62,867 nt of DNA. Origin: a virus. Taxonomy: Duplodnaviria; Caudoviricetes. The stretch covers positions 1 to 62,867 of the IMG/VR virus record IMGVR_UViG_3300042905_000668. One strand, written 5' to 3'. Of the stretch, positions 5,311 through 62,867 are shown in pieces; within the stretch, counting starts at the first letter, position 1, and each line of letters starts with the position of its first letter. The position numbers were made by a program, and so were the translations under genes. Below the pieces are notes generated by a model. The model searched no databases and had not been told where the DNA came from. It saw nothing but the letters and a program-made list of their open reading frames with translations.

Positions 5311-5330
5311 CAAATATTTCCTAAGAAATA

Positions 5331-6239: not shown

Positions 6240-6250
6240 GATTTAGCTCC

Positions 6251-7087: not shown

Positions 7088-7105
7088 TTAAGACTCCTTA
7101 AAAAT

Positions 7106-8519: not shown

Positions 8520-8531
8520 TTTGTGCTCCTT

Positions 8532-8960
8532 TTATTTACGTTTGATACCACGGGGATCGTCTACGACGGCCTCGACAGTATCGTCATTGATGATGCGGAA
8601 CTCACGGCCATGTATGACCAAGCGAGAACCTGAGTGTGGACGCACGAGGACAAAATCCCCGGGTTTACACCACGGCCCAGTAGGGAACTTAGATGGGTCT
8701 TGATAGCAGTCTGGCCCCATATCAACAACAAATAAGACCGTTGTGAGGGTCTCCTCGTTGCGCATGGTTTCATCAGCTTTGATAATACCAATCTCACTGT
8801 CCTCAAACTCTTTCTCTGCCTCTGGAATTGCACAAAGGATTCGGTAGCCAGATGGCCTTGGTAATTGCTTACCTTTTTCCTCCATTGATGATTGCCAGTT
8901 ATAGGTTCCCACGACTTGTGGGTTATTGGCGTCTGTAGCCAATAGGATGGAACTAGTCAT
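8532..8960 (-). CDS. groES: GroES/Cpn10-like co-chaperonin
   Basis: PSGYRIL...GIIKADET...VVDMGPDCY...KPGDFV...G-EFRIINDDTVEAVV matches the Cpn10 pattern. Confidence 0.8.
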   Translation of the reverse strand: MTSSILLATDANNPQVVGTYNWQSSMEEKGKQLPRPSGYRILCAIPEAEKEFEDSEIGIIKADETMRNEETLTTVLFVVDMGPDCYQDPSKFPTGPWCKPGDFVLVRPHSGSRLVIHGREFRIINDDTVEAVVDDPRGIKRK

Positions 8961-9144
8961 CCGAAGTCTCCAATCGTTGTTTCAGGTCTAGGGTGTATCC
9001 CCGCATGATGAGCAGACCACGAATCTCACCACACAGTTTCTTGTAATCCTCAAAGGACTCGGCCTTGCCCTCGGCCAAGTAGTCCTTGAGTTGGTCAATC
9101 TTCTCATCCGCTTGTTGGATGAGAACTTCAAATGCGTTCATCAT
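8953..9144 (-). CDS. Small helical head-module protein
   Basis: DYKKLCGEIRGL motif; ATGA overlap with the portal stop. Confidence 0.75.
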   Translation of the reverse strand: MMNAFEVLIQQADEKIDQLKDYLAEGKAESFEDYKKLCGEIRGLLIMRGYTLDLKQRLETSDD

Positions 9145-11666
9145 TCACCTTTAGGTTGTCTTTGTCTCATTTGGATACGCTCCTGCATTGCCCGCAGTTG
9201 CTCTTCTGCACTCTTGTTAGAAAGTTGTTTGAGAACATCAACACTCATGTCCATCATGTGGCGCTGCTTGTCTTCTTGCATCTGCGCGGCCATCTTCACT
9301 GCGTCCATCTTGATGCGTTTGTCATCAGTGGCTTGCTGTGTCTGGATGCGGTCACGCTCGACTTGCAACTGCGCTGCTTTGATGGCGTTGTCGGCTTGGT
9401 CTTTAGCAGCTTTACGCTGGTTCTCTTGCGCCTTGAGTTGCAACTCTTGCATTTGCATTTGCACGATGGGGTCTTGCGCTTGTTGTTGCGCTTGGGCCTG
9501 CTGTGCTTCCTGCTGATTCTTCTGGAGCAACTGCTGCGCGGCTTGCGCCAACATCGGAGACAGACGTGCTTCCACTTCTGGAGACATCTGAACTTCTTCA
9601 CCAGACTCATCTATCTGTGGTGGCAACTGCATACCAAGCGTCTGCTCAATCTGCTTGCGATACTCAAAGCCCAAGTGCTCGTTGATGTGAGCCATCATGG
9701 CTTGCTGCATCTGCTGCGCCATCGGGTTCTGTTGCAAGAGTGCCTGAATCTTGGGGTCTTGCATCGCTGACATGTGCACAACAATGTGAGCCTGATGATC
9801 TTGCGACAGGAACGCTTTGACCGGCTTGCCTTTGAGCACGTTCTGGTTCTCTGACACTGGGTCAGTCGGCTTCTGGTCATCGTCCATCGGCACGAGCTTG
9901 TTACCATCTTTGATACCCAACACTTCTAACATCTGACGATGCAGGAGTGGCAAGTTGTAGAGTTGCGGTGCACCTTGAGCAAGCTGGAGAACAGCTTGAT
10001 ACTGCACAATCTTCTGCGCCATTGTTGACGCATTAGGATCACTGACTGGTATGACATCCACATCGTCGTAGTCAGACTTCTTGGCTTTGCGACTGCCTTC
10101 GCTTGGCTGGTAGTCGTAGTCGTCTGGTGTGTACTCAGCAATGATGTGCTTCAAGAGACCCAACTCTTGCTTCATCGAGTAGTGAACACGTGCCTGAATG
10201 GCAGACATGTTCTTCAACGTACGTTCAAGAATTGCAAGGGTAGTACCCACAGGCGCTTGCGCACTCATGTCACTCAGTGTCAAGTCCGCTGTGTTAGCAA
10301 AACGTCTGCCTTCTTCAACGATCTGACCAAGCAAGGCCATCAGTGTCTGGCTAGGCTCTTTGTACGGCAGGGGCAATAAGTTGTCTTTCAGTGTGCCGCT
10401 TGCCACATCCGCATCGCGCCATTCACCCGGAGCAATCGGTGTGTCGTCTCCCTTGACACGCATGCCGCGAGTCTTGAAGCCGCCGGGCAGGTTACTTAAA
10501 GTACCAGCATCGACAAGCTGACGAATAAGAGAAGTGCCTGACTTAGCAAAAGCCCCAATGAGGTGAATGAGGCCAAAGCAGTAAAAACCAAATCCCGGAA
10601 CGTAACCATAATGGACAAAGTGTTGTCGTTTTGTGTAGGTCTCATCATCTGGCTCCCAGTTACGGCGAATGGCCAGCACGTTGCTGGTTCCCTTTTCAAT
10701 AGTGACAACGTACGGCAGTGCGATGCCAGTCTTCTCACCCTTCTTGTCTTTGTGCTCATAGCCTTCTAAGTCAAGGTCTACGTTCATCTCCAAGAGTTTG
10801 AAGCGATCATCGGCAGTGGCTCTAAAGCCCATCTTCTCTGCGATCTTCTTCTCAACTTCGTCGAGCACGTTGTCAGGTGTGCCTAAGTCCACGTCCATGT
10901 AGAACCCTGCAACCTGCAACTTGCGCAACTCATTCTCGGTCTTACGCATCACATGAGTAATACGTGGAGAAGACTCTAAGTTAGACGCGCCGTAAGGCAC
11001 AACGATGTCTTCCGCAGGAACAAAGAACGACACCTGACGATCAAGCGATGGGTCAAAGTACACCTTCTTGAACGCGTTACCAGACAGACCCAAGCCCCAC
11101 AACATGCGCTCATGCTCTGGCCTGTATTCTTTCATCACATCAGTTAACTGATAGTTCATATCGTCTGCTACGCGCTGTGCAGACTCTTTCTTAGCAGGTG
11201 TTTCTTTGCCAATGATCTGGGTCTTGACTGGCCCAGCGGCAGGAAACGTTGCCATCATTGTCTCTGACTGAAACTTCACCAGAGCTTCAGATAACATGGG
11301 GTGGAACACACCACACGCACCTTCCCAAGGTTCTGTGCGTTCTTCAATCTTCATGCCCAACAACTCTAGGCCATCAACGTAAGTCTGCATCCAATCTTTG
11401 CGACTGGCCACGTCTTCGTCATAGTCACTGATCAATTCTTCAGCGAGACTTTGCAAAACATCTTCGCCAATGAACTCAGCCAAGTTGGCATTAAAGTCAT
11501 GTTCTGAATCTTTGTCAGGCTCGATCTCAATCTCCATATCACCCATGCCAATGGTTACGGACTCAGGGTCTTCGATCTCAATCTCAATTTGAGGAGATGA
11601 TTGATCCATCGCGGCCAGTTCTTCCAAGCCTTGTGGCGCTGCATATAGTGACTTCTCAATAGCCAT
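9141..11666 (-). CDS. Portal protein (P22-like, with Gln-rich C-terminal barrel)
   Basis: 841 aa immediately after TerL; HPMLSEA, GNAFKKVYFD, LVDAGTLSNLPGG motifs. Confidence 0.9.
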   Translation of the reverse strand: MAIEKSLYAAPQGLEELAAMDQSSPQIEIEIEDPESVTIGMGDMEIEIEPDKDSEHDFNANLAEFIGEDVLQSLAEELISDYDEDVASRKDWMQTYVDGLELLGMKIEERTEPWEGACGVFHPMLSEALVKFQSETMMATFPAAGPVKTQIIGKETPAKKESAQRVADDMNYQLTDVMKEYRPEHERMLWGLGLSGNAFKKVYFDPSLDRQVSFFVPAEDIVVPYGASNLESSPRITHVMRKTENELRKLQVAGFYMDVDLGTPDNVLDEVEKKIAEKMGFRATADDRFKLLEMNVDLDLEGYEHKDKKGEKTGIALPYVVTIEKGTSNVLAIRRNWEPDDETYTKRQHFVHYGYVPGFGFYCFGLIHLIGAFAKSGTSLIRQLVDAGTLSNLPGGFKTRGMRVKGDDTPIAPGEWRDADVASGTLKDNLLPLPYKEPSQTLMALLGQIVEEGRRFANTADLTLSDMSAQAPVGTTLAILERTLKNMSAIQARVHYSMKQELGLLKHIIAEYTPDDYDYQPSEGSRKAKKSDYDDVDVIPVSDPNASTMAQKIVQYQAVLQLAQGAPQLYNLPLLHRQMLEVLGIKDGNKLVPMDDDQKPTDPVSENQNVLKGKPVKAFLSQDHQAHIVVHMSAMQDPKIQALLQQNPMAQQMQQAMMAHINEHLGFEYRKQIEQTLGMQLPPQIDESGEEVQMSPEVEARLSPMLAQAAQQLLQKNQQEAQQAQAQQQAQDPIVQMQMQELQLKAQENQRKAAKDQADNAIKAAQLQVERDRIQTQQATDDKRIKMDAVKMAAQMQEDKQRHMMDMSVDVLKQLSNKSAEEQLRAMQERIQMRQRQPKGE

Positions 11667-11675
11667 GTTTCATCC

Positions 11676-13235
11676 TTAGTAGTACGGTTCTTTCCTGCGG
11701 AAAGACTTCGGTTCATCTTCCTCATCAGACGCCAATTGAATAAAGCCACCGCGCCTGTAACGCAGTAATGCCTGAGTCATTGAGTCCACCAAGTCATCAT
11801 GTTCACCTGACGGGAACGATGCGACCTCTTCAACCAATTCTTCTGCCCAGTGCGTATTAGGCACCCAAACGTGGCCGGATGCAAACATATCAGCCACCGC
11901 ATTTAGCCGCGCAATTTTATCGTTACCTTTGCTTGGTGTGAACTCCTGCACCGGGATTCCCATCGCCCGCAGTTCAAAAATCAGGGGAGATCCCGCCGCC
12001 TTGGCCTCAACAATCAGTGAGTCCACTTCCCATTCTTTGTATTCTTCAAACGCCCGCTGTTTGAGTTCTGGAAACTCCATGCGTTTCTTGAACGCATTGA
12101 GCAATATGATATTTGCCCGGTTTACACCCAGATCATCGTCTTGATAGAACACACCCCATGTCGTGCATGCTGAATAGTCAGCCCGTTCTGTCTTTAAGAA
12201 CGCCGTATCCCACGACTGAATGATGAATTCACAGCTTGGGGGGCTGTCATGCTCCCAAATCTTCCACCATTCCCGCTTTACGATGGCAGACACGTCCGAT
12301 GTGGGCGACTGCATGTACTGCGCTTGCCATTTGGCGTTGGGAAGTTCTTCTTTGAGGGCTGACAACTCCTTAAGTGACCAAAACTCAGGCCATAAGGGTT
12401 TACCCGAAGGCAAAATAGCCGGAAACTCAATCACTTCCCACTCTTCGCCCGACCTTTGGGCCGCAGCTTTGATCACTTGACCCGTTAAGTCTCGTTTAGA
12501 CCACCTAGTCATCACCATCACGATAGAGCCACCCGGCTGGAGACGTTGACGAGGGCCAGATGTGTACCACTCATACGTCTTATCGTAGATTTCTGGGTTG
12601 GACTGGGCCATCGCGGCCTCTTGCTCCGAGTGCGGGTCGTCAATAATCAGAATATCCGCACCTTTACCGGTCACAGCACCGCCAATACCGATAGCAAAGT
12701 ACTCTCCGCCAAAGTTTGTTGCCCATCGACCCGCCGCTTTAGAGTCAGACTGCAAGTCTAGGGCCGGAAATATCCGCTTATAGTTAGCAGAGTCCACCAA
12801 GTTACGGACTTTTCGGCCAAAACCCACCGCCAACTCGGCAGTGTGGCTGGTCTGGATGATCTTTTTACCCGGAAACTTGCCAAAAAACCACGCTGGTAGC
12901 AGGTAACTGGCAAATTCTGACTTGGTATGTCGTGGCGGCATGTTAATGATGAGTCTTTTGCACTCACCCCGAGCCACCCGCTCAAATGCTCGGGCCATTT
13001 TCTCGTGATGCCGACCGTGGATAAAGTTAGGCCACATCTCCCTGATGAACACCATGAAGTCATCAGACGCAAGGGTACGCAACTTGCGGGTATTTAGCTC
13101 ATCCAGAATTTCTGCAATGGCTTCTTGCTCGTCTTTGGGGAATTTCTTGAGCAGCATCTGCTGCTGACCATACGGCAAGGTCTGGAGTTTCTCCAGCACC
13201 AATTCAAGTTTCGTCTTTTCGGCAACTTCAGTCAT
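11676..13235 (-). CDS. terL: Terminase large subunit
   Basis: Walker A PPRHTKS, Walker B ILIIDD, MTRW coupling motif, nuclease SWDTA and HDDLVDS. Confidence 0.95.
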   Translation of the reverse strand: MTEVAEKTKLELVLEKLQTLPYGQQQMLLKKFPKDEQEAIAEILDELNTRKLRTLASDDFMVFIREMWPNFIHGRHHEKMARAFERVARGECKRLIINMPPRHTKSEFASYLLPAWFFGKFPGKKIIQTSHTAELAVGFGRKVRNLVDSANYKRIFPALDLQSDSKAAGRWATNFGGEYFAIGIGGAVTGKGADILIIDDPHSEQEAAMAQSNPEIYDKTYEWYTSGPRQRLQPGGSIVMVMTRWSKRDLTGQVIKAAAQRSGEEWEVIEFPAILPSGKPLWPEFWSLKELSALKEELPNAKWQAQYMQSPTSDVSAIVKREWWKIWEHDSPPSCEFIIQSWDTAFLKTERADYSACTTWGVFYQDDDLGVNRANIILLNAFKKRMEFPELKQRAFEEYKEWEVDSLIVEAKAAGSPLIFELRAMGIPVQEFTPSKGNDKIARLNAVADMFASGHVWVPNTHWAEELVEEVASFPSGEHDDLVDSMTQALLRYRRGGFIQLASDEEDEPKSFRRKEPYY

Positions 13236-13848
13236 CGGTCTCGTCCAACTCTTTGCCGGTCATACCAAGTTCTTCATCCAGATCAATCACTTGCACCGCA
13301 GGTGCGCCGTTCAAGTACTTCTCTTCTGTTGGTTGTAGTTGCTTGGCTTCTACATCAATGATGCCGTCCATATAAGAAGACAGCTTGGTCGCCAGTTCAG
13401 CCTGTAACTCTTCAGTGGTGCGGTGCGTGACGTTGATCTCCATGCGTTCTACAAACGCACCTACATCACTCATCTTACCAAGAAGTTCTAACGCCTTTAA
13501 CTGGGTGGACTCTTTGTCCGAACCTGTCAGCATGAGAAGCCGCATCTTCACGTAGTTTCTAACCTGCGCCGCATTACGCACGACCTCAACGTCGTACTCA
13601 TTCAACATGGCCTTCAATAAAACAGCGGCTGCTGTAGTAAGTTCTTTGCCCGCAGTCGGAGACTCAAAGAATTGAGCGTGAGCTTCTTTCTTGTCTGCCG
13701 TTGTGATAGCGGGTACTTGCATTCCGTTAGCCGTCAGAAATTCGACGGTGTTGAATGCAGCTTGCGCTCGTGCATGCAAGTCTTTGGCCTCCTCGGTAGT
13801 TAGCGAGAAAGGCAGGGGGACATCTAGTTCTGGTGTAACAAGAATCAT
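13228..13848 (-). CDS. terS: Probable terminase small subunit
   Basis: Directly upstream of TerL; QLKALELLGKMSDVGAF oligomerisation-like motif. Confidence 0.7.
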   Translation of the reverse strand: MILVTPELDVPLPFSLTTEEAKDLHARAQAAFNTVEFLTANGMQVPAITTADKKEAHAQFFESPTAGKELTTAAAVLLKAMLNEYDVEVVRNAAQVRNYVKMRLLMLTGSDKESTQLKALELLGKMSDVGAFVERMEINVTHRTTEELQAELATKLSSYMDGIIDVEAKQLQPTEEKYLNGAPAVQVIDLDEELGMTGKELDETDD

Positions 13849-14380: not shown

Positions 14381-14890
14381 ATGACAAAACTCTCTTACGC
14401 GGCACAAGCCGCATCCGTTGCCACTGACTTAGTGGAAGCCAAAAAACACGATGATGCATCCGCATCATGCCGTGAAAGCGCAAATAAGCGCATTGCCGTC
14501 CTACACAAGGATAAGGTTGTTGTAGGACGCTACAGCAAAGACGGCACCGGATGCTCTACGGCAACGTCATTCGTTGATACGTTGACACAAGCCGGTTGGG
14601 CTAAAAAGACGGCTCAAAACTATTTGAGTCTTTTCAGGGAAGCCGTGAAAACCGGTAAGCCGGTGACTGACTGGGGCGGCACGAAAGCCGGAGGACGGCA
14701 AGCCGCCGCCGGTGCAAAGGGCGCGAAGGGCAAAAAAGAGTTTGCCGATAAGTTGGCAACATGTTTTCGTGATGCTGAATTCGAAGGGTTTTTAAATGAC
14801 CTCGAAGCATCTTTTCAAGATGATGAAATTGAAACCCTGATGGATGGTGTTAAATCCTACCTCGAAGCATCCGGCGTCAAGATCGACTGA
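14381..14890 (+). CDS. Early hypothetical protein (first gene of the + arm)
   Basis: Open ORF with GAAAG leader, followed by its own terminator. Confidence 0.8.
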   Translation: MTKLSYAAQAASVATDLVEAKKHDDASASCRESANKRIAVLHKDKVVVGRYSKDGTGCSTATSFVDTLTQAGWAKKTAQNYLSLFREAVKTGKPVTDWGGTKAGGRQAAAGAKGAKGKKEFADKLATCFRDAEFEGFLNDLEASFQDDEIETLMDGVKSYLEASGVKID

Positions 14891-14899
14891 TGCAACCCC

Positions 14900-14934
14900 A
14901 AAACCCCTGACCGAAAGGTTGGGGGTTTTTTTTT
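14900..14934 (+). terminator. Rho-independent terminator
   Basis: CCCCTGACC-GAAA-GGTTGGGGG followed by T9. Confidence 0.9.
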
Positions 14935-17418: not shown

Positions 17419-18495
17419 ATGTACAACTCAATCACTCTCAAACAATGTGCTGACCTTATCGCCGCCGTGGGCGACAAACAAACTGTCCTAGTGCAGGGCG
17501 AGATGGGCATCGGCAAGTCTGCCATCCTCAAGATGCTCAAGTCATATCCTCAATTCAAGGACGCGTTCTTTTGCTACGTGGACATCACTACCAAAGATGT
17601 TGGTGACTTCCTTATTCCCAAGATACGTGACATTGACGGTGTAGAAGTATGTTCATTCATACCCAACGAAGAGTTCGGGTTCCACTTCAAAGGCCGCAAG
17701 GTTGTGATGATGCTTGACGAGATCGGCAAGGCACGTGGTGGTGTGATGAACGCATGCTTGCGTCTGATGAACGAGCGGTCACTGGGTGTGAATGTGCTAG
17801 ACGGTGTTGTGTTTGGTACAACTAACTTGTCTGTCGAGGGACTAGGTGACAACGTGCCGCCACATGCTCTCAATAGGGTGACTCGTGTACGTGTCAAGAA
17901 GTCTGACGCACCGACATGGATCGAGGACTATGCGATTCCCATGGGTATCAACCCTGTCATCATCGGCACTGTTGCTGAGTACCCCGAGATGTTTGCTACG
18001 TTCGAGGACTACGAGAAGCCCGAGCAGAATGTTTACATCAGTGATCCCCGTACTGTGCGTGGTGCTGTTGTGACACACCGTTCTATGGAGCGTGCCGCCT
18101 ATGTGTATGAGCACACTCGTATCTTGGGTGATGCTGTGATGTGTCACGCACTGGCTGGTACCGTGGGTGAAGCGGCTATGCACAACATCTTGACGATGGA
18201 CAAGATGGACTCACAACTTACACCGTGGGATGAGTTGATCAAGTCACCCGAGACTGCGACTGTGCCTACGTCTGCCGCCGCTACATGTATGTTGGTAGCC
18301 AAGGCTGTGCATCGTATTGAGAACAGCAACATCGTTGCATGGATGAAGTTCTTGAACCGCATCCCCAAAGAAGCGCAAGGTTTGTTTGCACGTAGTGTCA
18401 TGTCAGACAAGTGCCCCAAGCGTGACGTTGCCGCACGTAACACCGAGTTTGCTTTATGGGCGGCGGCTAACAACTTCATGTTCGCCAAGAAGTAA
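17419..18495 (+). CDS. AAA+ ATPase (MoxR/dynein-related type)
   Basis: Walker A GEMGIGKS, Walker B MMLDE, sensor TTN, ALNR. Confidence 0.9.
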   Translation: MYNSITLKQCADLIAAVGDKQTVLVQGEMGIGKSAILKMLKSYPQFKDAFFCYVDITTKDVGDFLIPKIRDIDGVEVCSFIPNEEFGFHFKGRKVVMMLDEIGKARGGVMNACLRLMNERSLGVNVLDGVVFGTTNLSVEGLGDNVPPHALNRVTRVRVKKSDAPTWIEDYAIPMGINPVIIGTVAEYPEMFATFEDYEKPEQNVYISDPRTVRGAVVTHRSMERAAYVYEHTRILGDAVMCHALAGTVGEAAMHNILTMDKMDSQLTPWDELIKSPETATVPTSAAATCMLVAKAVHRIENSNIVAWMKFLNRIPKEAQGLFARSVMSDKCPKRDVAARNTEFALWAAANNFMFAKK

Positions 18496-18525
18496 TCAGC
18501 TTCATATCATATTAAGGAGAGAGCT

Positions 18526-19710
18526 ATGTCATTCCTCACACAACTCAACACGTTGACACCAACGCAACGTATCCAACGAGCACACGTAGAGCTTATGGGT
18601 CATCCTGACACGATGGAGTATGCGTCTGTCATCATGGTCGGTAAGTACGAAGTGCGTGACGATGTGCCCACTGCATGCACCAACGGCATCGACTGTAAGT
18701 ACGGTAGCAAGTTCATCAAGGACATGCCTGACTCTGACTTACGTGGCTTGATCATGCACGAGAACCTACACAAGGTATTCCAACACATGTTCTTGTGGCA
18801 ACATCTCTACAAGGAAGATGGACGCACGGCTAACATGGCATGCGACTACGTGATCAACATCATCATTGACGATATCCGTGTACGTACTGGTGGGTTTGTC
18901 ACACTGCCCAAGGGTGGGTTGCTTGACCGCAAGTACGAGGGTATGGATTCGCAGACTGTGTACAACATGTTGCGGGAAGAGGGTGACGGTGGTGGATCTG
19001 GTGGTGGTGAAGGTGACGGCTTTGACGATCACGATTGGGAATCGGGTGAGGCCATGTCACAAGAAGATATCGAGCAGATCGGCAAGGACATCAACCAAGC
19101 TATTCGTCAGGGTCAACTGATGGCGGGTAAGTTGGGTGGCAATCAGTCACGTGCATTGGGTTCGCTCATCGAGCCAAAGGTTGACTGGCGTGAACAGTTA
19201 CGTGAGTTCGTTTCATCTACTGCTGTAGGCAAGGACATCTCTACGTGGCAACGTGTTAACCGTAGGTGGTTGCAACATGATACGTACATGCCCTCTACTA
19301 TCACTGAGAATGTTGGTCGCATCGTGGTTGCCATTGATACATCCGGTTCTATTGGTACTGCTGAGTTGTCCAAGTTCTTGTCTGAGGTGCAAGGTATCTG
19401 CGTCAACACCAAGCCTGAGAAGGTTGATCTGTTGTATTGGGACACCGACGTCGCAGCTCATGAAGTGTACACACAGGAACAACTTGATAAGCTCACATCA
19501 TCTACTAAGCCCGCCGGTGGTGGTGGCACTGACGTGGCATGTGTGTCCAAGTATCTCAAGGACAATCAGATTCGTCCTGAGTGTGTAATTGTCTTGACTG
19601 ACGGTTACATCTACGGTGATTGGGGTACATGGAATGCCCCCGTGCTGTGGACTATCGTAGGTGGTAACAAAGTTGTACCCCCCATGGGCACGACCATCCA
19701 TCTCGACTGA
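18526..19710 (+). CDS. Metallopeptidase-like + VWA domain protein (DUF2201-like)
   Basis: HENLH (HExxH), ANMACDYVIN, MIDAS DTSGS...GGT...LTDG. Confidence 0.9.
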   Translation: MSFLTQLNTLTPTQRIQRAHVELMGHPDTMEYASVIMVGKYEVRDDVPTACTNGIDCKYGSKFIKDMPDSDLRGLIMHENLHKVFQHMFLWQHLYKEDGRTANMACDYVINIIIDDIRVRTGGFVTLPKGGLLDRKYEGMDSQTVYNMLREEGDGGGSGGGEGDGFDDHDWESGEAMSQEDIEQIGKDINQAIRQGQLMAGKLGGNQSRALGSLIEPKVDWREQLREFVSSTAVGKDISTWQRVNRRWLQHDTYMPSTITENVGRIVVAIDTSGSIGTAELSKFLSEVQGICVNTKPEKVDLLYWDTDVAAHEVYTQEQLDKLTSSTKPAGGGGTDVACVSKYLKDNQIRPECVIVLTDGYIYGDWGTWNAPVLWTIVGGNKVVPPMGTTIHLD

Positions 19711-27935: not shown

Positions 27936-28115
27936 ATGAGAAAAATTTCAGAGCGAGAGATGAGAGTGACGATTGGCATTATGCGTTCGATGGCAAATTG
28001 CAAGCCCATAAGCCCGTTTCACTTGCAAGCGTCAAAAGATATGGAGCGCATGCTAGAAGAATTATTAGAGTTGCGTAAGCAAACAAAGGAGAAGAAGAGT
28101 GCAGATCATAGATAA
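27936..28115 (+). CDS. Small hypothetical protein
   Basis: GGAG RBS before MRKISER. Confidence 0.6.
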   Translation: MRKISEREMRVTIGIMRSMANCKPISPFHLQASKDMERMLEELLELRKQTKEKKSADHR

Positions 28116-29656: not shown

Positions 29657-29683
29657 TTGACATTGTAAAGTTTATGTTATTAT
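29657..29683 (+). promoter_or_regulatory. Possible sigma70 promoter TTGACA...TGnTATTAT
   Basis: Consensus -35 and extended -10 but only 15-nt spacing. Confidence 0.45.
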
Positions 29684-29711
29684 CCATACACAAAACAAAA
29701 AGGAGAGAGCT

Positions 29712-30119
29712 ATGACCGAGACAATATCGGTTGATAAACTCGTCGCCGTCTACATCAAGATGCGCGACAAACGTGCCGAACTTTTACGTTCATACGAAGA
29801 AGCTGACAGCACGGTAAAGACACAGATGGAAGTTGTGGAGACCAAGCTATTGGACATCTGCAAGGAGATCGGTGTTGATCGTCTTGGTAGCACTCACGGT
29901 ACGGTAATGCGTACGGTGAAGACCCGCTATTGGACAAGTGACTGGGAATCAATGCACAAGTTCATCTTGGAAAAGAAGATGCCCGAACTGCTTGAACGCC
30001 GTATCAGTCAGACAACCATGAAACAACTGTTGGAAGAGAACCCCGAGCTTATGCCTATGGGTTTGAACACTGACAGCAAGTACAGCGTAACTATAAGGAG
30101 AACCACAAGTGGAACTTGA
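29712..30119 (+). CDS. Conserved replication-module protein
   Basis: LVAVYIKMRD coiled coil, THGTV, DWESM, LLERRI motifs; precedes SSB-like gene. Confidence 0.8.
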   Translation: MTETISVDKLVAVYIKMRDKRAELLRSYEEADSTVKTQMEVVETKLLDICKEIGVDRLGSTHGTVMRTVKTRYWTSDWESMHKFILEKKMPELLERRISQTTMKQLLEENPELMPMGLNTDSKYSVTIRRTTSGT

Positions 30120-30300
30120 ACAATCATTGACCGTGCCCGAAGTGGCAAAGATGTTGCGGATGTCACGTCAGACAATCTACAACATGGTCAAGGCGGGGGA
30201 CATCCCCCATTTTAGAGTAGGCAACAAAGTGCGTTTCAATCGCGCAGACCTTGATGCCTTAATGCAAACCAAACCTGTAACAACTGGAGAAACCAAATGA
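30109..30300 (+). CDS. Excisionase-like (HTH_17) DNA-binding protein
   Basis: LTVPEVAKMLRMSRQTIYNMVKAGDIPHFRVG..RF. Confidence 0.85.
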   Translation: MELEQSLTVPEVAKMLRMSRQTIYNMVKAGDIPHFRVGNKVRFNRADLDALMQTKPVTTGETK

Positions 30301-31187
30301 GCGAAATGACACTATTTTCTAAGGGCGGCAACACACTACCCGCCCACCTGAAGAACCTACAATTAGACGCAACCACAAAAGCCTTGATGGGTGGCAGTGG
30401 TAACGGCGGCGGTAAGCGTATCTCCATTCGCGGCAACGTGTTCCGCATGATGGTTGATGGCAAAGAAATTGCACAGAACGAAGACCGTGCAATGAACATT
30501 ATTATTGCGGCGGCTAACGCCAACGTATCGAGAACATTTTATGCAGGAACTTATCAAGAAGGCCAAGCCATGGCACCCACATGTTGGTCAAACGATGGTG
30601 TCACACCCGACATCAAGTCTGAGCAACCACAAGCAAGCAAGTGTGCTTCATGCCAACAAAACATCAAAGGCTCCGGCCAAGGTGATTCCCGCGCATGCCG
30701 ATTTAGTCAACGCCTTGCCGTCCTCTTGGAGAACGATATTCGTGGAGACATTTATCAACTGACTCTCCCCGCGCAATCAATCTTTGGTGCGGCTGAGAAT
30801 GGCAAGATGCCTTTGCAGTCATACGCAAAGTTTTTGGGCAGTCATGGTTTGCCAGTAACCGCAGTCGTTACCGAGATGCGTTTTGATACTGCAAGCGCAA
30901 CACCACGCCTGACGTTCAAGGCAGTGCGTCCTTTGAACGAAGAAGAATTGGCAATGACCCAAGACAAGGGTCAGTCTACCGAAGCCAAACTTGCTATCGC
31001 CGCAACTGCCGCGCAGATGGATGGTGCTACTAAAGCGGAATTCATACGTCCCGCCGCAGTCGAAGCTCCCAAAGCGGAACCCAAGGTAGAGGCTGAAGCT
31101 GTTGAAACAGCAGAGCCAACTAAACGCGCTAAGAAAGCCGCACCAAAAGATGTGGCTGACATCTTGGACGATTGGGCTGAAGAGTAA
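30297..31187 (+). CDS. Putative ssDNA-binding/annealing protein
   Basis: RISIRG, PTCWS, CASC...GSG...AC motifs; Ala/Glu-rich linker and acidic-aromatic tail DILDDWAEE. Confidence 0.6.
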   Translation: MSEMTLFSKGGNTLPAHLKNLQLDATTKALMGGSGNGGGKRISIRGNVFRMMVDGKEIAQNEDRAMNIIIAAANANVSRTFYAGTYQEGQAMAPTCWSNDGVTPDIKSEQPQASKCASCQQNIKGSGQGDSRACRFSQRLAVLLENDIRGDIYQLTLPAQSIFGAAENGKMPLQSYAKFLGSHGLPVTAVVTEMRFDTASATPRLTFKAVRPLNEEELAMTQDKGQSTEAKLAIAATAAQMDGATKAEFIRPAAVEAPKAEPKVEAEAVETAEPTKRAKKAAPKDVADILDDWAEE

Positions 31188-31195
31188 TTGGTTTC

Positions 31196-31251
31196 GGGGG
31201 GAACGCTGTGCAAAGGCTTTTTGAGCTTGCAGACGAGCAGTTAGTACCCCC
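31196..31251 (+). ncRNA. Candidate hairpin RNA with loop-E (GAA/AGUA) motif
   Basis: GGGGG-GAA...AGTA-CCCCC closing inner stems GCT/AGC and TGCAA/TTGCA. Confidence 0.45.
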
Positions 31252-31269
31252 ACCTCAAAGGAGAGCATC

Positions 31270-31632
31270 ATGGACATACTAGAACTTGCGGCAGAACACG
31301 AAGAGTTGTTTAGCAAAGAGTTTATGAAGTGGTTACCTGACAACTTGCATGTATGGGAAGCGTTTTGTGACCAAACATTTAAGATCAGAAAAACTGGTTT
31401 TAAACATTACTCTGCACGTACCATCGTGCACTACTTGCGACATCACTCTGCAATCACTGAAGCTAGTGGACAGTGGAAGATTAACAATAACTACAGTCCG
31501 TACCTTGCACGATTATTTGATAAGAGATTTCCAAACCTTGCGGGGCTTTGGGAATACCGAGAAACAAAACGTGCCAAGTTAGACCACACACCACTATTTA
31601 ACAACTATGAACAACAGAGGCTATTCCCGTAA
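31270..31632 (+). CDS. Hypothetical protein (HYSARTIVHYLR...INNNYSPYLAR family)
   Basis: AAAGGAGAG RBS; conserved-looking motif. Confidence 0.8.
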   Translation: MDILELAAEHEELFSKEFMKWLPDNLHVWEAFCDQTFKIRKTGFKHYSARTIVHYLRHHSAITEASGQWKINNNYSPYLARLFDKRFPNLAGLWEYRETKRAKLDHTPLFNNYEQQRLFP

Positions 31633-31855
31633 ATTTGTTGATGCGAACAATAAGGCAGACCCATTTCATGTGGGTGTGCAACTTGGACGTATTTGCATAC
31701 AACGTGACATTCCAGTACAGGATGTAGCCGAACACTTAGACGTATCACGTCAGGCCATTTACATGTGGTTCTTGGGGAAAGCACTGCCACACCCGAGCAA
31801 ACGCAAAGTATTATGGGAACTGCTTGACCGCCTAACGGCCAACGCCGTAACTTGA
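31607..31855 (+). CDS. Cro/C1-type HTH protein
   Basis: VQDVAEHLDVSRQAIYMWFLG..P. Confidence 0.8.
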   Translation: MNNRGYSRKFVDANNKADPFHVGVQLGRICIQRDIPVQDVAEHLDVSRQAIYMWFLGKALPHPSKRKVLWELLDRLTANAVT

Positions 31856-31918
31856 TCCCGCGCCCATGGTCTATCGCCAGTAGACCGGAAGGCTTATCTG
31901 TCTGTAAAAGAGAAAACA

Positions 31919-34762
31919 ATGACAACACGGAACCCCTTTCTCACATCTGTACTTGCCTCTGAAGGTTTGTACTGTGTGGTTGGATTGAAGAAGGGTGCGC
32001 CGAGGCAGACTTTTGTAGAAACGATTGATGAGATTGATGGAGTCGTAGATGGACTTATCTCGCAGGGTTTTGACGCATACTTTGGATGCGCTAAATATCT
32101 TTTGGAAGATGAAGGTCGCACAGCAAAGAACGCAAAATGGTTTAAGGCTTTTTGGCTTGACCTAGATTGCGGTGAAAACAAACCATACGACACGCAAGCA
32201 TCCGCATTGGATGCACTCAGAATATTTGTTAAAGCAACAGGGTTACCTCGACCCACTATCATTAACTCAGGACGTGGCATACACGTTTACTGGACGCTGA
32301 AGGAGACCATCGGTTACAACGATTGGAAACCAACAGCCGAAGCACTGAAGAAATTCTGTGCCTCATACAATCTGCTTGCTGACCCTGCGGTCACGGCAGA
32401 TGCCGCACGAATACTGCGTATACCCGAGACGTTGAACTTCAAGGACAACCCGCCAAAGCCTGTATCTGTAATGGTCGAGTCGCAGCCGGTAGAGTTCACA
32501 CGGTTCAAGACGTTGATAGGTGTAGAAGAGGAAGACGATGAACCGAAAGGTTTGTTTGGTTCTGACGCACCACCACGCCGCCCAATAGATGCAACGACCC
32601 GCGCATTGATGGGTAACAGTGTGTCCCGTTTTGGGACTATCATGCGCAAGAGTGTCGAGGGTGAGGGGTGCGCACAACTACTGCGTATCTATAAAGAGCA
32701 AGAGACCGTTGAGGAGCCGCTATGGAGAGCGGGTCTGTCTATCGCCATTAACTGCGAAGACGGTGAGAAAGCGATCCACAAGATCAGCAATCAGCACCCT
32801 GAGTACGACCCGCAAGAGACGTTCAACAAAGCACACGCATTATTGGAGAAGCCATACAAGTGCGCTACGTTCTCAAGCATTAACTCTGCACCCTGCAACG
32901 ACTGCCCACACAAGGGCAAGATTACTTCACCGATTCAGATTGGTTCACGCATTGCCGAAGCCAAGGCAGAAGACAACATCGTTGTCATGCGCAACGCCAT
33001 ACTGGAAGAGGAAGTCACGGTTGAAATACCTGACTACCCATACCCATACTTTCGTGGCAAGAACGGCGGTGTGTACAAGCGGGGTTGGGGTAAAGATGAG
33101 AAGGGTGAAGATGAAAAGGACGAGTTGATCTACGAGTACGACTTCTATGTCGTGAAGCGGTTGACTGATCCTGATACAGGAGAATCTTTGTGGATGCGCT
33201 TGCACATGCCCAAGGATGGAATCCGTGAATTCTCCGCGCCACTATCAAGCGTTTTATCTAAGGACAAGTTGCGGGAAGTCTTGGCATACCAAGGCGTCAC
33301 TGCATACAACAAGAGATTGGATTTACTTATGGGCTACATCACCAAGTGGGTGCAAGAACTTCAGCACCTGACAGAAGCAGAAAAGGCACGTCAACAATTT
33401 GGTTGGCATGAAGACGATACCAAGTTTGTTATTGGTAATCGTGAGGTCACGGCATCGGGCGTGAACTACAGCCCGTCATCTAATGCCACTGCGGAGATTG
33501 CAAGCTACTACACCAAGAAAGGTACAGTTGCCGAGTGGAAGAAAGTTGCCAACATCTACGCCGCCGCAGGGAATGAAGTACGTGCGTTCACACTTTTTGC
33601 AGGATTTGGTTCAGCGTTATTTAAGTTCACAAAACTTAATGGCTCCATCATTCACCTGACAAACAATGGCTCCGGTGTAGGTAAGACAACAATTCAGCTT
33701 GCGGTCAACAGCATTTGGGGTAGACCCCTTGAACCCTTGATGAACCAAGAGGATAAGTACTTGGCACGTATGCACCGTATCGCAGTGCTTGGCAATATAC
33801 CCCCTACCATTGATGAGTTGACCAACATGGGGGATGAGGAAGTCAGTGCGATGGCGTACGCTATTACGCACGGTCGGGGTCGCAACCGTATGCAGTCACA
33901 GTCTAATGCTGAACGTAGTAATTCACTGCGCTGGAATTCGATTGCGATTACATCAGGCAACAAGAGTTTGTACGATCAGTTGTATAACCTCAAAGACTTT
34001 CCGGAGGGCGAACTGATGCGGGTACTGGAGTTTGCAGTTGCCAAGAACGACACCCTGAGTAAGGCCGAGTCTGACTTGATGTTCAACCCCATGTACGAGA
34101 ACTACGGTGTAGCCGGAGAAATCTTTATACGTTATGTGATTGCCAACCTACCGGAAGTTCAACGTCTATTGAATGCGATTCAACGCAAGTTTGATAAGGC
34201 CGCAGGGTTTACACAACGTGAACGCTTTTGGTCTGCGACAGCGGCATGTGCTCTGACATCCGGCATCATTGCTAAGAAGTTAGGCTTGCATGATATTGAT
34301 GTATCCGCAGTCTACAAATGGGCAGTGGAAACTCTAAGCAGTATGCGCATTGAAGTCCGCGCTGACAGCATGACACCACTGAGCCGCATCGGTATGTTCT
34401 TGAACGAGAAGAACAACAACATGTTGATCGTGAAGAGCACGGTTGATAAGCGGTCGGGTTTGTTTGAATCACCAATACGGGAACCCCGTGGGGAGTTGAT
34501 GACCCGCTACGAGCCGGATACCAAACTGTTGTTTATCTCCACTAAGGCACTGCGTGAGTGGTGTAGCGAGAACCAAATATCCTATAAGATGGTGTGCGCT
34601 GATCTACAGAAGGCCAAGATCATCAAAGGTATTATTAAGAAGAGCATGTCTAAAGGTTCTGATATGACCACACCCTCGGTGTTTGCACTGATGATTGACT
34701 GCGCTGTTGCTACTGACCTTGATCCGGAAGTAGAAACTATTACCCATGACGATAACGGCTGA
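31919..34762 (+). CDS. Primase-helicase (AEP primase + PriCT + DUF927 helicase)
   Basis: FWLDLDCG, SGRGIHVYW, DAARILRIP; C..C..CPH; QFGW; Walker A GSGVGKTT, IDE, GRGRNR. Confidence 0.9.
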   Translation: MTTRNPFLTSVLASEGLYCVVGLKKGAPRQTFVETIDEIDGVVDGLISQGFDAYFGCAKYLLEDEGRTAKNAKWFKAFWLDLDCGENKPYDTQASALDALRIFVKATGLPRPTIINSGRGIHVYWTLKETIGYNDWKPTAEALKKFCASYNLLADPAVTADAARILRIPETLNFKDNPPKPVSVMVESQPVEFTRFKTLIGVEEEDDEPKGLFGSDAPPRRPIDATTRALMGNSVSRFGTIMRKSVEGEGCAQLLRIYKEQETVEEPLWRAGLSIAINCEDGEKAIHKISNQHPEYDPQETFNKAHALLEKPYKCATFSSINSAPCNDCPHKGKITSPIQIGSRIAEAKAEDNIVVMRNAILEEEVTVEIPDYPYPYFRGKNGGVYKRGWGKDEKGEDEKDELIYEYDFYVVKRLTDPDTGESLWMRLHMPKDGIREFSAPLSSVLSKDKLREVLAYQGVTAYNKRLDLLMGYITKWVQELQHLTEAEKARQQFGWHEDDTKFVIGNREVTASGVNYSPSSNATAEIASYYTKKGTVAEWKKVANIYAAAGNEVRAFTLFAGFGSALFKFTKLNGSIIHLTNNGSGVGKTTIQLAVNSIWGRPLEPLMNQEDKYLARMHRIAVLGNIPPTIDELTNMGDEEVSAMAYAITHGRGRNRMQSQSNAERSNSLRWNSIAITSGNKSLYDQLYNLKDFPEGELMRVLEFAVAKNDTLSKAESDLMFNPMYENYGVAGEIFIRYVIANLPEVQRLLNAIQRKFDKAAGFTQRERFWSATAACALTSGIIAKKLGLHDIDVSAVYKWAVETLSSMRIEVRADSMTPLSRIGMFLNEKNNNMLIVKSTVDKRSGLFESPIREPRGELMTRYEPDTKLLFISTKALREWCSENQISYKMVCADLQKAKIIKGIIKKSMSKGSDMTTPSVFALMIDCAVATDLDPEVETITHDDNG

Positions 34763-34949
34763 TACTGTACCAGTTGCTATAGAATGGCATAAGTTTGTAG
34801 TGGGTAGCTCCTTCTACATCCCTTGCCTAGACCGGCAAGATGTTGCCACCCAAGTTGCCGCCTCTGCCAAAGAGCGCGGCATGAAAGTTAAATTCCGTTT
34901 TGTTTTGGAAAGAGGCACCCAAGGAGTGAGATTCTGGCGAATCACTTAA
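34746..34949 (+). CDS. Small conserved phage protein
   Basis: W.KF.VGSSFYIPC...GVRFWRI motif. Confidence 0.8.
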   Translation: MTITADTVPVAIEWHKFVVGSSFYIPCLDRQDVATQVAASAKERGMKVKFRFVLERGTQGVRFWRIT

Positions 34950-34969
34950 CAATGTGCTAGAGTTCGCCC

Positions 34970-35037
34970 TAGCAACTTGTTACTCTCTCCTTTGGTTGCT
35001 ATCTCCTTGAGCCCCGACTTCGGTCGGGGTCTTTTTT
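34970..35037 (+). ncRNA. Candidate anti-Shine-Dalgarno sRNA
   Basis: Extended -10 TGcTAGAGT at 34955-34963; stem TAGCAAC/GTTGCTA with CTCTCTCCTTT in the loop; ends in a terminator. Confidence 0.55.
35011..35037 (+). terminator. Rho-independent terminator at the junction of the two arms
   Basis: GCCCCGAC-TTCG-GTCGGGGT-C-TTTTTT. Confidence 0.9.
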
Positions 35038-38000
35038 ATTCACCGTATGCTTCTGCGGCGGCTTGCTTCAAGTAGGGAGCCAGTTTACGGTCGAGCGTTA
35101 CACCTTGGTACATTTCGTTTGAGATACGCTCACGTGCCTTCACCGACTGAGTAATTGTCTTTTCACTGATGCCCAGTTCAGGGTACTTAGCACCAAGCTC
35201 AAACAACTTCTCACGTGCATCCATCATCCCGTCGGCGTCGCCCTCTCGCATAGCCGCATAGTACTTCTTCAGTGCGTTTTTTTCGATGGACTTGATGGCC
35301 TTACCCTTCTCGGTCATGTACGCATTTTCTTCGTACTGCTTCATCAAGTCAGCAGGGGCAAACCCAAGCACTTGCATAGCGGCGTTGTAGCCGTTTACAT
35401 CTCCAACCGTATCACCACGCAGAGTGTTAGCGCCTTCGGTTGCATAACGGCCACTCTTCAAGATGTTACGCAGTGCAATAGGTAGTATGGCCTCAATGCC
35501 GCGCTCGTACTGGCCTTCAGCAATTAAGTCTTTACCACGCAAAATACTGTCCACAATAGAGTACGGCGCACCAAGCAAGCTCTCCATGAACTGGGATAAC
35601 TCACTTGCATCTGCTTTGCTACCCTTTTGCTCACGCCACAACAAGTCAGTCCAACCCACACGGTCGGCAATGCTCAAGTTGGTAAGGTAGTTGACTGGGC
35701 CTTTGTAGAAGAAGTCACCAAGGAAGCTACGCATGACAGTATCAAAATCATCGTCATCATCCTCTTGGAACATGTTGTAAGCGGCTTCTGCAACCCAGTA
35801 CAAGGGTAAACCTTTTGCACCCGCAAACAGCGCAGACATTCCATACACACCTGCAAGTTGCCTACGAGCCGCTTTGATTGCTTCAAGCTGTTCACCTGTT
35901 GCACCTTTGACGGGGAGTGAACGCATCATGGTGTCAAACAACATGTAGTACATGCTGAATGCAAAACGCTTAAACACCATCAAAACTTTTCCTATGTCAC
36001 TCTGACCGAGGCTGGGGCCAGATAGCGTACTACCTGCACCGTGCGAATACTCCACCATTGCAAGAGCTTTATCAATCGCCTTGGTTTCTTTTTCTGCGGG
36101 GGTCAAACGCTTTTCTTCCGCAGTCATTTTGGCAGGGTTATTAAGCCGCGTTTTTTCCAAGTCATAAGCGGCAACGGCTGTGATCTCACGGTTCATGCGC
36201 TCGGCATGATGGAACATAAAAGAACCTACCAACGTAGTGACACGTACAAGTTTGTTTGTGCTGCCGTACCCTGATGAATCGTTGTTCTCAGAACTTAACG
36301 CACTCCGTGCAGTAGACGTAGCCAGCAGACCACGGTCTTTCATAGCCCCAATGAGTCCTGCATATTGAGGAGCCTTGCCATTGTTGACCAAGTTCTCAAT
36401 AGAAGTCATGGCCTTCTGGTCACTAGACTCACCTGTCAACTCAGCAACTTTGCGTGTGAACCCACTGCTCATGTAGAGCTTACGGGCGTTGTTTAGTGCC
36501 ACACCTGCATCTTTGAACCCATACTCACCACCAAGTTGCGGGTAGACAATCAGAGGAGTTTGCAGTGTGTTGATTACTGCGGAAGAGATGTTACCTGCAA
36601 GGTTGTAGTAGAACGCACCGGAGCTTGCATACTGGGAGAATGCAGTTAACGTAGGGTTCATTGCAAAATCGCGGCGACCATCAAACTCTTTAAGAAGTTC
36701 ACCACCGTAGGTATTAACATCGCCCCGTGAGGAATCAACAGTTTCCTTCATGTCTTTTACAATGCGTTGCAATTCGGGGCCATACTGCATACGGGCCAAC
36801 TGACGTGCAGTGTTACTGCTCACACGGTCAAACACATAGGCGGCGTTATCAATATAGCCACCAATACCAGTACGCTTTTGACGGCTCTTCAGAATGCTGG
36901 CTTCAGGCATAGCCTTGACAACAAGTTGTATCAAGTCATCAATCGCTTTATCCCCGGCTTGATTGTCCTTCATGATCTTCATGATGTCGGCCAACATAGT
37001 GCCAGACGGTACATTGTCTGAAGTCAGTTGATCTGCACGGGAATAAACGTCAATTTTTGTAGCACCTTTGGCCTCAAGCTGTCTACGCGCAAAGTCACGT
37101 TCAGCTTCGGATTCAAAAGATTCTTTTTTAGTGTCACCGTTCATGTCGTACTGCAACCAGAACGGGCCTTCGCGGAACAGCGGCGCATAGTGGTCAACAC
37201 GCACGGTGCTTAACTCAAACAGAATCTTTTGATAGGCAGATGCGGCTTGCGACTTGTTACCCACCGTAGCCTCGATGTTGCGCTCCAACGATTTCAAGAA
37301 CTCCCCATCAAGAGTTTTGTAGGTGGCAAATAGATCGTGGTATAACTTCTTGCCATCCGGTGTAAGTTTGTTAAACCGTGCGTTGAGTTGTTTCCACTCG
37401 GCTTCTTTCTCAGGACTGCCTTTGTACTTGTCCAACTTCGCTTCAGGGTTTACGTCCACACGAGTGGAGTCGTTTACCAAAGTAGACCACGCCTGATACT
37501 CAGGGGTTTGTCGAAATTCGGCCAAGCGGTTATGTAATGGGTACATGGCTTCAAGAAGTTTCTCTTGATAACCGGCCATCTCTTCAACAGTAGCGGCAAA
37601 ACGTTTAGCTGAATCACCTAGATATTTGCTACCAGCCTCACCCAAGGCAGATAAGTTTAGTGCCTTGTACATCAACTGACGGCCAGTCGTACCAATTGTT
37701 TCTGCGGCTTTCCAAAACCCAACAGCGTTCTCACTGTTCATGATGGGTTGCTTGCGGATGGTGGCACCCATCTTTGTGAACATCTCTTGCACAACATTAG
37801 GGTTGCTCAGAGATTGCGCATACATAGTTTCACCTGTGCGTGTCTCAGGTGGAGGGCTAATGATGTCGTTCAGCATGCGGTCAATCGCATCTAACGCAGT
37901 CTCGGTCTTAGGGGGCAAGCGGAGCAACTGACGCATGGCATTAACCAAACGCTCCCAACCAGTGAGCTTCTCACCAGTAGGTTTGAATTCTTTTAAGCGG

Positions 38001-62381: not shown

Positions 62382-62867
62382 AGAACGTATTCCTTGGCAC
62401 AAACCTCAACGGAGAGGTATCGCGGTCTTCTGCTTCAGCCAAAAGCCATTGCTGTTCATACTCAGCCTTTAGCGCCATCACACGATTGGGATCCATATCT
62501 GGCAACTTCATACTCAACAGATAAGCCAATCCTGCCACCATGCAGGGGATAAAACGGAACGGAATATCCTGCACGTTTACACCTGTGCCAGCGTCCTGAA
62601 TACGGCGCATGCGGTAGTACACAAACATGTACTGATCTCCGGGGGCGTTAGGTGTAGGCCACACATTGATAGCAGGTAGGTTCTGCACGGTTATAGCTGC
62701 ACCAGTAGTATGCGCCGCAGCGGTTGTGCCATTCTGTCCACGAGCGCAGTTTAACAACTGGTTGTTTACAGGGTCTATGTTGGGGTAACTGATGGTCTCA
62801 TTATCAATCTTGATAAACCCAGCAGTGGTCAAACCGTCCACATTAGACAACGTGATTGTGGTGGCTG
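62030..62867. repeat. Right copy of imperfect terminal direct repeat
   Basis: Aligns with 1-838. Confidence 0.95.
62374..62867 (-). CDS. Partial allele (3' part) of adaptor gene 345-1277
   Basis: Same protein with a few substitutions (DVDPNRVMGL vs DMDPNRVMAL); 5' end beyond the window. Confidence 0.9.
   Translation of the reverse strand, partial: ATTITLSNVDGLTTAGFIKIDNETISYPNIDPVNNQLLNCARGQNGTTAAAHTTGAAITVQNLPAINVWPTPNAPGDQYMFVYYRMRRIQDAGTGVNVQDIPFRFIPCMVAGLAYLLSMKLPDMDPNRVMALKAEYEQQWLLAEAEDRDTSPLRFVPRNTFYA

Follow-up and report, generated by a model that had tools for sequence, protein, structure and literature searches.

The virus record IMGVR_UViG_3300042905_000668 (Caudoviricetes), a complete viral record of 62,867 bp that is called the window here, carries on its + strand, at positions 34953-35037, an element composed of a promoter-like block, a hairpin with a CU-rich loop, a linker and an intrinsic terminator. 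We consider it likely that the element gives rise to a + strand RNA of about 68 nt, which pairs through its loop with the segment from the Shine-Dalgarno (SD) sequence to the AUG of three early genes of the same phage, g135, a helicase gene and g394, and blocks the initiation of their translation. The architecture of the element is conserved among related uncultured phages, the polarity of its terminator is that of the + strand, and its loop co-varies with the translation-initiation regions (TIRs) of the three genes.

The element is bounded by the stop codons of a 67-aa + strand open reading frame (ORF), g67, at 34949 and of a 2010-aa - strand ORF at 35036. A sequence-only reading of the window had described an extended -10 motif, a 7-bp stem with its loop, a UCUCCUU linker and a UUCG terminator, about 68 nt in total, and all of these parts are present:

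34953-34963, + strand: extended -10-like motif TGTGCTAGAGT (TG-n-TAGAGT; hexamer at 34958-34963), recognized from sequence
34970-35037, + strand: predicted small RNA of ~68 nt, or terminal part of an operon 3' untranslated region (3'UTR), from the minimum free energy (MFE) fold and a covariance model
34970-34976, + strand: 5' arm of stem 1, TAGCAAC, which pairs with 34995-35001
34977-34994, + strand: CU-rich 18-nt loop TTGTTACTCTCTCCTTTG (as RNA, UUGUUACUCUCUCCUUUG), the proposed anti-SD seed
34995-35001, + strand: 3' arm of stem 1, GTTGCTA
35002-35010, + strand: single-stranded linker with TCTCCTT (UCUCCUU) at 35002-35008
35011-35037, + strand: intrinsic terminator CCCCGAC-TTCG-GTCGGGG with its T-run, from a terminator scan

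The hairpin called by the terminator scan on the + strand, at 35011-35030 with the tail CTTTTTTATT, is GC-rich and is followed immediately by a U-run, as is characteristic of an intrinsic terminator. The first base of the promoter-like block, TG-n-TA(G/C)AGT, is 4 nt past the g67 stop codon, and the 7-bp stem 1 begins 7 nt past the -10 hexamer, where a transcript would start. The block may serve the small RNA as an extended -10 promoter of its own. The single-sequence fold of the + strand is modestly better than chance (z = -2.29; 5 of 200 shuffles are as good). Two small ORFs, one of 9 codons on the - strand after an SD-like sequence and one of 32 aa on the + strand at 34977, were rejected as the conserved content of the element, because variable loop lengths and an indel among the relatives disrupt their frame.

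The primase was used as a query and identified 75 related viral loci, 37 of which contained enough of the junction sequence to be aligned with the window (38 rows). Related uncultured phages, with primase identity down to ~73%, carry 27 distinct variants of the element, and the architecture proposed from sequence alone is kept in every one of them: all 27 fold into a 5' hairpin with a GCAAC/GUUGC stem, a CU-rich loop, a linker and a terminator. The loops are 14-21 nt long and almost always contain UCUCC, and in most variants the linker carries a UCUCC or CCUCC motif. Mean column identity is 0.87-0.95 in the upstream non-coding block and the stem arms, compared with 0.80 and 0.64 in the flanking coding ends. 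The named structure has 94.3% of its cells paired, against 88.8 +/- 0.7 in shuffles, none of 500 of which reached the observed value, and structures slid along the alignment paired at most 56%. Seven of the fifteen base pairs change on both sides. Five of these belong to the eight pairs of the terminator, which is 95.4% paired, and two to the seven pairs of stem 1, which is 93.1% paired over the 27 variants. In the promoter-like block, the TG and the equivalents of T-12, A-11 and T-7 are kept in the 38 rows, and the position 'n' varies among C, T and A. The GTTCGC that adjoins the block is equally invariant, for which we found no reason.

The covariance model R1, built from the alignment of the element, recognized the element a single time in the window (80.3 bits) and a single time in each of five related genomes. 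Of 29 viral loci picked up by a pattern scan it matched 22, and of 120 such loci in bacterial genomes it matched none. A clue to the bacterial host was sought with the conserved-block pattern and abandoned, since the 120+ matches in unrelated taxa approximate the number expected by chance and R1 confirmed 0 of 120. The only other R1 match in the window is weak (18.1 bits, E = 0.38); it is a second + strand terminator-like hairpin with a long T-run, at 14865-14933, 3' of a 169-aa ORF, and looks like a plain terminator. No Rfam family reached its gathering score on the whole window, and a search of 34850-35150 at E up to 10 gave sub-threshold matches only. An inverted repeat based on CTAG, GCTAGAG..CCCTAGC at 34956-34973, shares bases with both the promoter-like block and the 5' arm of stem 1. 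In transcripts that read through, it would be a competitor of stem 1, and on the - strand a G.U pair makes it stronger. This upstream hairpin was rejected as a part of the element, as it is not maintained in the group of loci L018, L024 and L067.

The evidence that connects the element to particular genes comes from the co-variation of its loop with TIRs. We compared the RNAduplex energy of each phage's loop with its own TIR and with the TIRs of its relatives, and assessed the own-versus-other difference by permutation. Three TIRs responded:

29698-29717, + strand: TIR of g135 (start codon 29712), the strongest candidate target by complementarity and co-variation
28084-28104, + strand: TIR of the helicase gene (516 aa, GTG start 28099), the second co-varying target by the own-versus-other comparison
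18513-18524, + strand: TIR of g394, a 394-aa DUF2201/VWA-like gene (start codon 18526; Pfam domains), the third co-varying target by the own-versus-other comparison

The predicted g135 duplex of the window extends from -14 to +5 and so covers the SD sequence to the start codon, with 11 perfect pairs on AAAGGAGAGAG and further pairing over AUGAC (-18.0 kcal/mol). In a set of 32 loci that included the window and gave 27 distinct loop/leader pairs, loops paired on average with their own g135 leaders at -18.1 kcal/mol and with other leaders at -15.6 kcal/mol, and none of 10000 permutations reached this difference. The same was true of a repeat with the TIR taken as -30..+6 (0 of 5000). Among 15 clade representatives, one per loop type, the energies were -18.5 versus -15.0 kcal/mol (p = 2e-5), and after double-centring, in which row and column means are removed, the signal persisted (p = 1e-5). 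Neighbouring genes at the same loci, which share the phylogeny, gave no signal over -30..+6 (helicase, HTH-63, g296, primase and g67; p = 0.09-0.81), and neither did the reversed loop (773 of 5000).

For the helicase gene, 11 of 5000 permutations reached the observed value when the TIR was taken as -30..+15. Its pairing in the window is weak (-14.5 kcal/mol). In lineages with a loop starting UGAUCUCC the helicase gene begins AUG GAG AUC A, so that the loop can bracket the start codon. The g394 TIR, AAGGAGAGAG, pairs with the loop at -16.8 kcal/mol. When 14 testable early gene families were compared in 10 genomes, a signal was obtained for g135 (p = 0.0018), the helicase (p = 0.0014) and g394 (p = 0.0046; 9 genomes) only, and the p values of the other 11 families were 0.14-0.92.

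The changes can be followed in single lineages. The loop of genome G003 contains CUCCC, and all three TIRs of this genome have GGGAG; its g135 TIR is the best non-self site genome-wide (-25.7 kcal/mol). In G006 the loop starts with UGUCAC and ends with CCUGUU, and the TIRs carry GUGAC and AACAGG. The G002 loop matches the 11-nt stretch GAAGGAGAGGA. Different TIRs match different parts of the loop, which pairing between two RNAs predicts and a shared protein motif does not. Compensatory changes of seed and target are thus found as own-versus-other differences for three TIRs and as matched changes within lineages, with negative controls. The central idea of the sequence-only reading, that the loop pairs with GGAGAGAG-type sites of the + arm, was supported for two of the leaders it had listed, those of g135 (site at 29699) and g394 (site at 18514), where the co-variation in related phages that it had proposed to look for is present; the helicase gene at 28099, which it had not listed, has to be added, and the leaders at 21772 and 25263 received no such support. 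Its further sites at 16083, 23241 and 31257 fell outside the comparison, with orthologues in 1, 3 and 1 of the 10 genomes, respectively.

One group of loops departs from its own leader. The loop of L067, L054 and L020 (G001) is a ~19-nt near-perfect complement of the g135 leader of L018 (G009), with -32.3 kcal/mol. With its own g135 leader it reaches only -18.2 kcal/mol, and the region upstream of that leader is without the promoter-like block seen elsewhere. The leader of the L067 lineage may have been replaced and the loop left 'orphaned'. The best early-strand site for this loop in G001, which is 86% complete, is weak.

The distribution of ribosome sites in the window agrees with the leaders being partners of the loop. 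The motif GGAGAGAG occurs 7 times against 0.84 expected, a number reached by none of 100 shuffles. Six copies are on the + strand, five of which lie 0-8 nt before a start codon, while the copy at 4337 is not a ribosome site; the sole - strand copy is the element itself. The complementary leaders that had been listed from the sequence are real. Taking the + arm as the early strand and the - arm as the late strand, GGAGAG is found before 8 of the 41 early-strand ORFs of the window and before none of its 58 late-strand ORFs (Fisher p = 5.6e-4), which agrees with the earlier statement that the listed complementary leaders all belong to + arm genes. GGAGC shows the opposite preference (1 of 41 early-strand versus 8 of 58 late-strand ORFs). 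Pooled over six related genomes, GGAGAG precedes 20 of 258 early-strand and 0 of 340 late-strand ORFs. The shorter GAGAG is rare on the late coding strand (4 observed versus ~25 expected from order-1 and order-2 Markov models; early strand, 23 versus 29-33), which could be avoidance of the CUCUC core of the RNA or a codon effect. In gene bodies of at least 80 aa GAGAG is depleted in both arms (12 of 25.3 and 5 of 19.5 expected) and the relatives are inconsistent, and for these reasons avoidance in late mRNA was dropped as evidence.

Two observations favour the + strand as the RNA. The T-run 3' of the terminator hairpin is present on this strand only, and the terminator call is likewise on the + strand, in agreement with the polarity argument of the sequence-only reading. 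Moreover, the + strand helices of the 27 variants contain 18 G.U or U.G cells compared with at least 3 A.C or C.A cells (a further 11 unpaired cells are not itemised). The terminator of the convergent genes works in one direction: downstream of the hairpin the - strand has CUCAAGGAG and no U-run (35011-35040), so the late operon is without an obvious intrinsic terminator here. It is probable that late transcripts continue across the element, which would make them perfectly antisense to its RNA and also antisense to the 67-aa gene.

Of 22 sequencing runs listed, 7 are recorded as RNA. The junction was sought in four RNA-labelled runs, all available as Logan contigs, which cannot show RNA ends or strand. 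One contig (X1) spans 34004-35209 and with it the whole convergent junction, another (X2) covers 34813-34995, from inside g67 to a point inside the element, and two more (X8 and X10) cover the 67-aa gene only. The possibility that the block is a repeated phage promoter was rejected, since its motif is not enriched and its 16-mer is unique in the genome at up to 3 mismatches.

Protein-family searches place replication and nucleotide-metabolism genes on the + strand at ~14.4-34.9 kb, and the element is located at the sole point where this arm converges with the late arm. The neighbouring features are:

~14.4-34.9 kb, + strand: arm with genes for DNA polymerase, a sigma-70 region 4 protein, exonuclease, helicase and primase/helicase, from family matches
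1-13848 and 35036-62867 (late arm), - strand: two blocks of packaging and virion genes, including terminase, portal and the 2010-aa protein
29712-34949, + strand: gene run ending at the element, with g135, an HTH_17 protein (63 aa), g296, g120, primase/helicase (947 aa) and g67, from ORFs and protein families
29657-29683, + strand: promoter-like hexamers 5' of g135, TTGACA, a 15-nt spacer and TGtTATTAT, read from the sequence

The junctions of the gene run are tight or overlapping, from which we infer that g135 to g67 form one operon; g135 overlaps the HTH_17 gene, which in turn overlaps g296, and g67 is conserved. A promoter scan that required a spacer of 16-18 nt called nothing upstream of g135, and AT-rich -10-like blocks occur at the same place in the relatives. 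No function was assigned to g135: the protein has no Pfam match, PHROG 13900 labels it 'minor head protein', and its AlphaFold model (pLDDT 86.7) gave a top Foldseek match of only E = 0.43 and VIA-align Z scores of 6.0 or less, limited to the long N-terminal helix. In the region 17419-19710, the DUF2201 metallopeptidase/VWA-like gene g394 comes after an ATPase-like gene (PHROG 1297); PHROGs label g394 'HNH endonuclease', in disagreement with its Pfam domains. No near-identical DNA was found among isolated phages. The nearest isolate by primase is Pseudomonas phage Rollin (31.6% identity), in which the convergent genes overlap and there is no such element. A search of the window for tRNA and tmRNA genes found none, and no integrase was seen among the window proteins scanned for families. 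A 43-nt exact direct repeat is located near both record ends, at 361-403 and 62390-62432, at - strand ORF junctions; the first 30 bases of the record do not recur, so the repeat is not a simple terminal overlap.

Based on these features, a mechanism of action can be proposed. The element would encode a + strand RNA consisting of a 5' hairpin, a single-stranded linker and an intrinsic terminator. Its CU-rich loop would base-pair across the SD sequence and start codon of several early mRNAs of the phage, at least three. Pairing would block the binding of the 30S subunit, and translation would be turned down as the RNA accumulates; pairing would repress rather than activate. The RNA could originate from its own extended -10 promoter after the 67-aa gene, from the 3' end of the replication operon, or from both. 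Because the element ends the gene run begun by g135, the RNA would accumulate with early transcription, and either source would result in delayed negative feedback on early and replication functions. Since g135, the HTH_17 gene and g296 overlap, repression could spread from g135 by translational coupling. We speculate, with considerably less confidence, that the phage has two translational classes defined by their ribosome sites, early GGAGAG and late GGAGC, GGAGT or GGAGG. An RNA resembling the 16S tail would mask the early class and constitute an RNA-only early-to-late switch that co-evolves with its targets in every lineage, and the perfectly antisense read-through of the late operon would tune or remove the RNA late in infection.

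Several observations weigh against a trans-acting + strand RNA. Support for stem 1 is mainly its invariance, as double changes affect two of its seven pairs only. As a single sequence, the - strand of the window folds better than the + strand (z = -3.81 versus -2.29; 0 of 200 shuffles as good), which counts against a quick call of the strand. In the loop:TIR duplexes, wobble-compatible and A.C-type differences number 19 versus 30 and 21 versus 14, without direction, so the wobble count does not separate complementarity, expected of a + strand RNA, from identity, expected of a - strand mimic. The sigma-70 scan does not call the block at 34953, because there is no -35, and TGNTASAGT is not enriched in the genome (5 matches versus 4.28 expected). 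The four RNA-labelled contig sets do not show a discrete small RNA and neither support nor refute its expression. The ORF calls come from our own crude caller, and the duplex energies, for loops defined by the MFE fold, take no account of accessibility. Codons 3-5 have to be included for the helicase signal to emerge, and it is absent at -30..+6. Two of the originally listed targets, those at 21772 (p = 0.20) and 25263 (the sigma-like gene; p = 0.92), have no own-versus-other signal, and the second UCUCC, in the linker, does not co-vary with any tested TIR. At loci L013, L036, L029, L041/G005 and L067/G001, the g135 leader of the same phage does not rank with the better partners of the loop, and in the window the g135 site is one of several similar loop matches.

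The same sequences could act in other ways. The element might be a purely cis-acting 3'UTR, in which the 3' hairpin of the g135-to-g67 mRNA pairs with the 5' leader of the same mRNA, by fold-back or between molecules, and occludes the g135 site as in icaR. The element is directly 3' of the last gene of the run headed by g135, the g135 leader shows the strongest co-variation, the promoter is only putative, the RNA-run contig 34813-34995 continues from inside g67 into the element, and icaR provides a precedent (PMC3868564). We nevertheless regard this arrangement as unlikely, because the helicase TIR, which is 5' of the promoter-like block of g135, and the g394 TIR, 16 kb upstream, also co-vary, which fits a diffusible RNA better. 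Furthermore, the non-coding TG-n-TAnnnT block is conserved around a variable 'n', and the hairpin begins exactly at the expected transcription start, as is typical of primary small RNAs. Very little credence is due to an ordinary operon end, with a terminator and a stabilising hairpin whose pyrimidine-rich loop resembles an anti-SD sequence by composition only. Convergent gene ends usually have terminators, the terminator shows the clearest structural co-variation, no RNA family matches, the RNA-run contigs do not support a separate RNA, and any CU-rich loop is partly complementary to any SD sequence. An operon end does not account for complementarity to three TIRs that is specific to loop and lineage and reaches beyond the GGAG core, for the negative outcome of the permutation, neighbouring-gene and reversed-loop controls, or for the loop, linker and upstream block being conserved more strongly than the flanking coding sequence.

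It is also improbable, to a similar degree, that the - strand is the functional one and that late read-through RNA displays a TIR-like GGAGA in a hairpin loop as a decoy of the early ribosome sites. Such a decoy would titrate a translational repressor, a CsrA/RsmA-like protein, a nuclease or 30S subunits; in a variant of this idea, one protein binds the same double-stranded DNA motif at both places. The well-folding - strand carries AAGGAGA and AAAGGAGAGAG, the missing U-run makes late read-through probable, the wobble test cannot tell identity from complementarity, and one stem-1 pair has two A.C cells on the + strand that the - strand would read as G.U. On the other hand, the terminator polarity and the promoter-like block are both those of the + strand, as is the excess of G.U cells, 18 against at least 3 A.C or C.A. 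The sub-segments of the loop complement matched by different TIRs differ, where a shared protein motif would predict a common core, and the extra - strand hairpin is lost in the L018/L024/L067 group. The - strand has only two GGA motifs, one of them in a loop, far fewer than Csr/Rsm sponges; with no U-run and no Rfam match to a Csr or Rsm family, a CsrB/RsmZ-type sponge, which the sequence-only reading had mentioned as an alternative, was rejected. The exclusion of a - strand RNA that mimics the TIRs depends solely on the intramolecular G.U bias, the terminator and the promoter-like block.

A base-pairing + strand RNA of the proposed kind has a phage precedent. The c4 RNA of P1 and P7, from the immI operon, is a phage-encoded small RNA that blocks the translation of an mRNA of the same phage by pairing of its loop sequences with the ribosome-binding region, and matched differences of RNA and target account for the specificity between the related phages (PMC12197685). 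The element and c4 are alike in mechanism only, without likeness of sequence or structure, and c4 lies upstream of its targets, whereas the element follows the replication genes at their 3' end and apparently has several targets. The c4 RNA is cut out of an operon transcript instead of being ended at its own terminator, and serves lysogenic immunity by antirepressor control. Classification of the element as a c4-type RNA was rejected given the absence of a threshold match in Rfam, the location at the 3' end of the replication run and the terminator of its own.

In Staphylococcus aureus icaR, the pyrimidine-rich anti-SD motif UCCCCUG of the 3'UTR pairs with the SD region of the same mRNA, which blocks initiation and creates a substrate of RNase III (PMC3868564). 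The element resembles icaR in its position: it closes a gene run at the 3' end, and its best match is the first TIR of that run. Position and complementarity to g135 fit an icaR-type regulator, provided that g135 to g67 are co-transcribed, and two further co-varying TIRs are upstream of the run. icaR is one monocistronic host mRNA, while the motif of the element is in a hairpin loop beside a terminator, accompanied by a promoter-like block and by co-varying TIRs outside the run. The gene layout of the element is like that of small RNAs derived from 3' ends, such as DapZ, MicL, CpxQ and SroC, which overlap the end of an operon, use its terminator and arise from an internal promoter or by processing. 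These RNAs are encoded by the host, depend on Hfq and target host genes unrelated to their own. Below the Rfam thresholds, the top match is RF02278 (Betaproteobacteria toxic small RNA), with 19.2 bits where the gathering score is 50 (E = 0.12), and membership in this family was rejected. It has in common with the element a short RNA in which a pyrimidine-rich stretch precedes the terminator, and the match is confined to positions 35000-35037, the linker and terminator.

The element belongs to none of the c4, icaR and 3'-end-derived families. It would represent a phage base-pairing RNA that occludes ribosome sites, a kind that is already known, in an RNA family absent from Rfam, and the natural compensatory evidence for it is unusually good for a case known from metagenomes only. 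Searches of open-access text, and the review PMC12197685, gave no description of this RNA family or of the regulation of this phage group. Comparison of sequences yielded the family, a short list of candidate targets and the natural compensatory mutations that link them, and where expression data are missing, loops and targets that co-vary among metagenomic relatives can serve instead to nominate phage small RNAs. To our knowledge, few phage small RNAs regulate genes of their own phage in trans, and most of these are from temperate model phages. If the proposed mechanism is true, the pair of loop and ribosome site is compact and programmable, with a specificity already varied by evolution. In phage T4, early messages are told from late ones by the sequence of the ribosome site, GGAG in early leaders, and are then shut off by RegB and RegA. 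The T4 agents are proteins, a nuclease and a repressor, whereas here the discriminating agent would be an RNA, and the shut-off of replication genes, a task of proteins in T4, would be performed by RNA in environmental phages.

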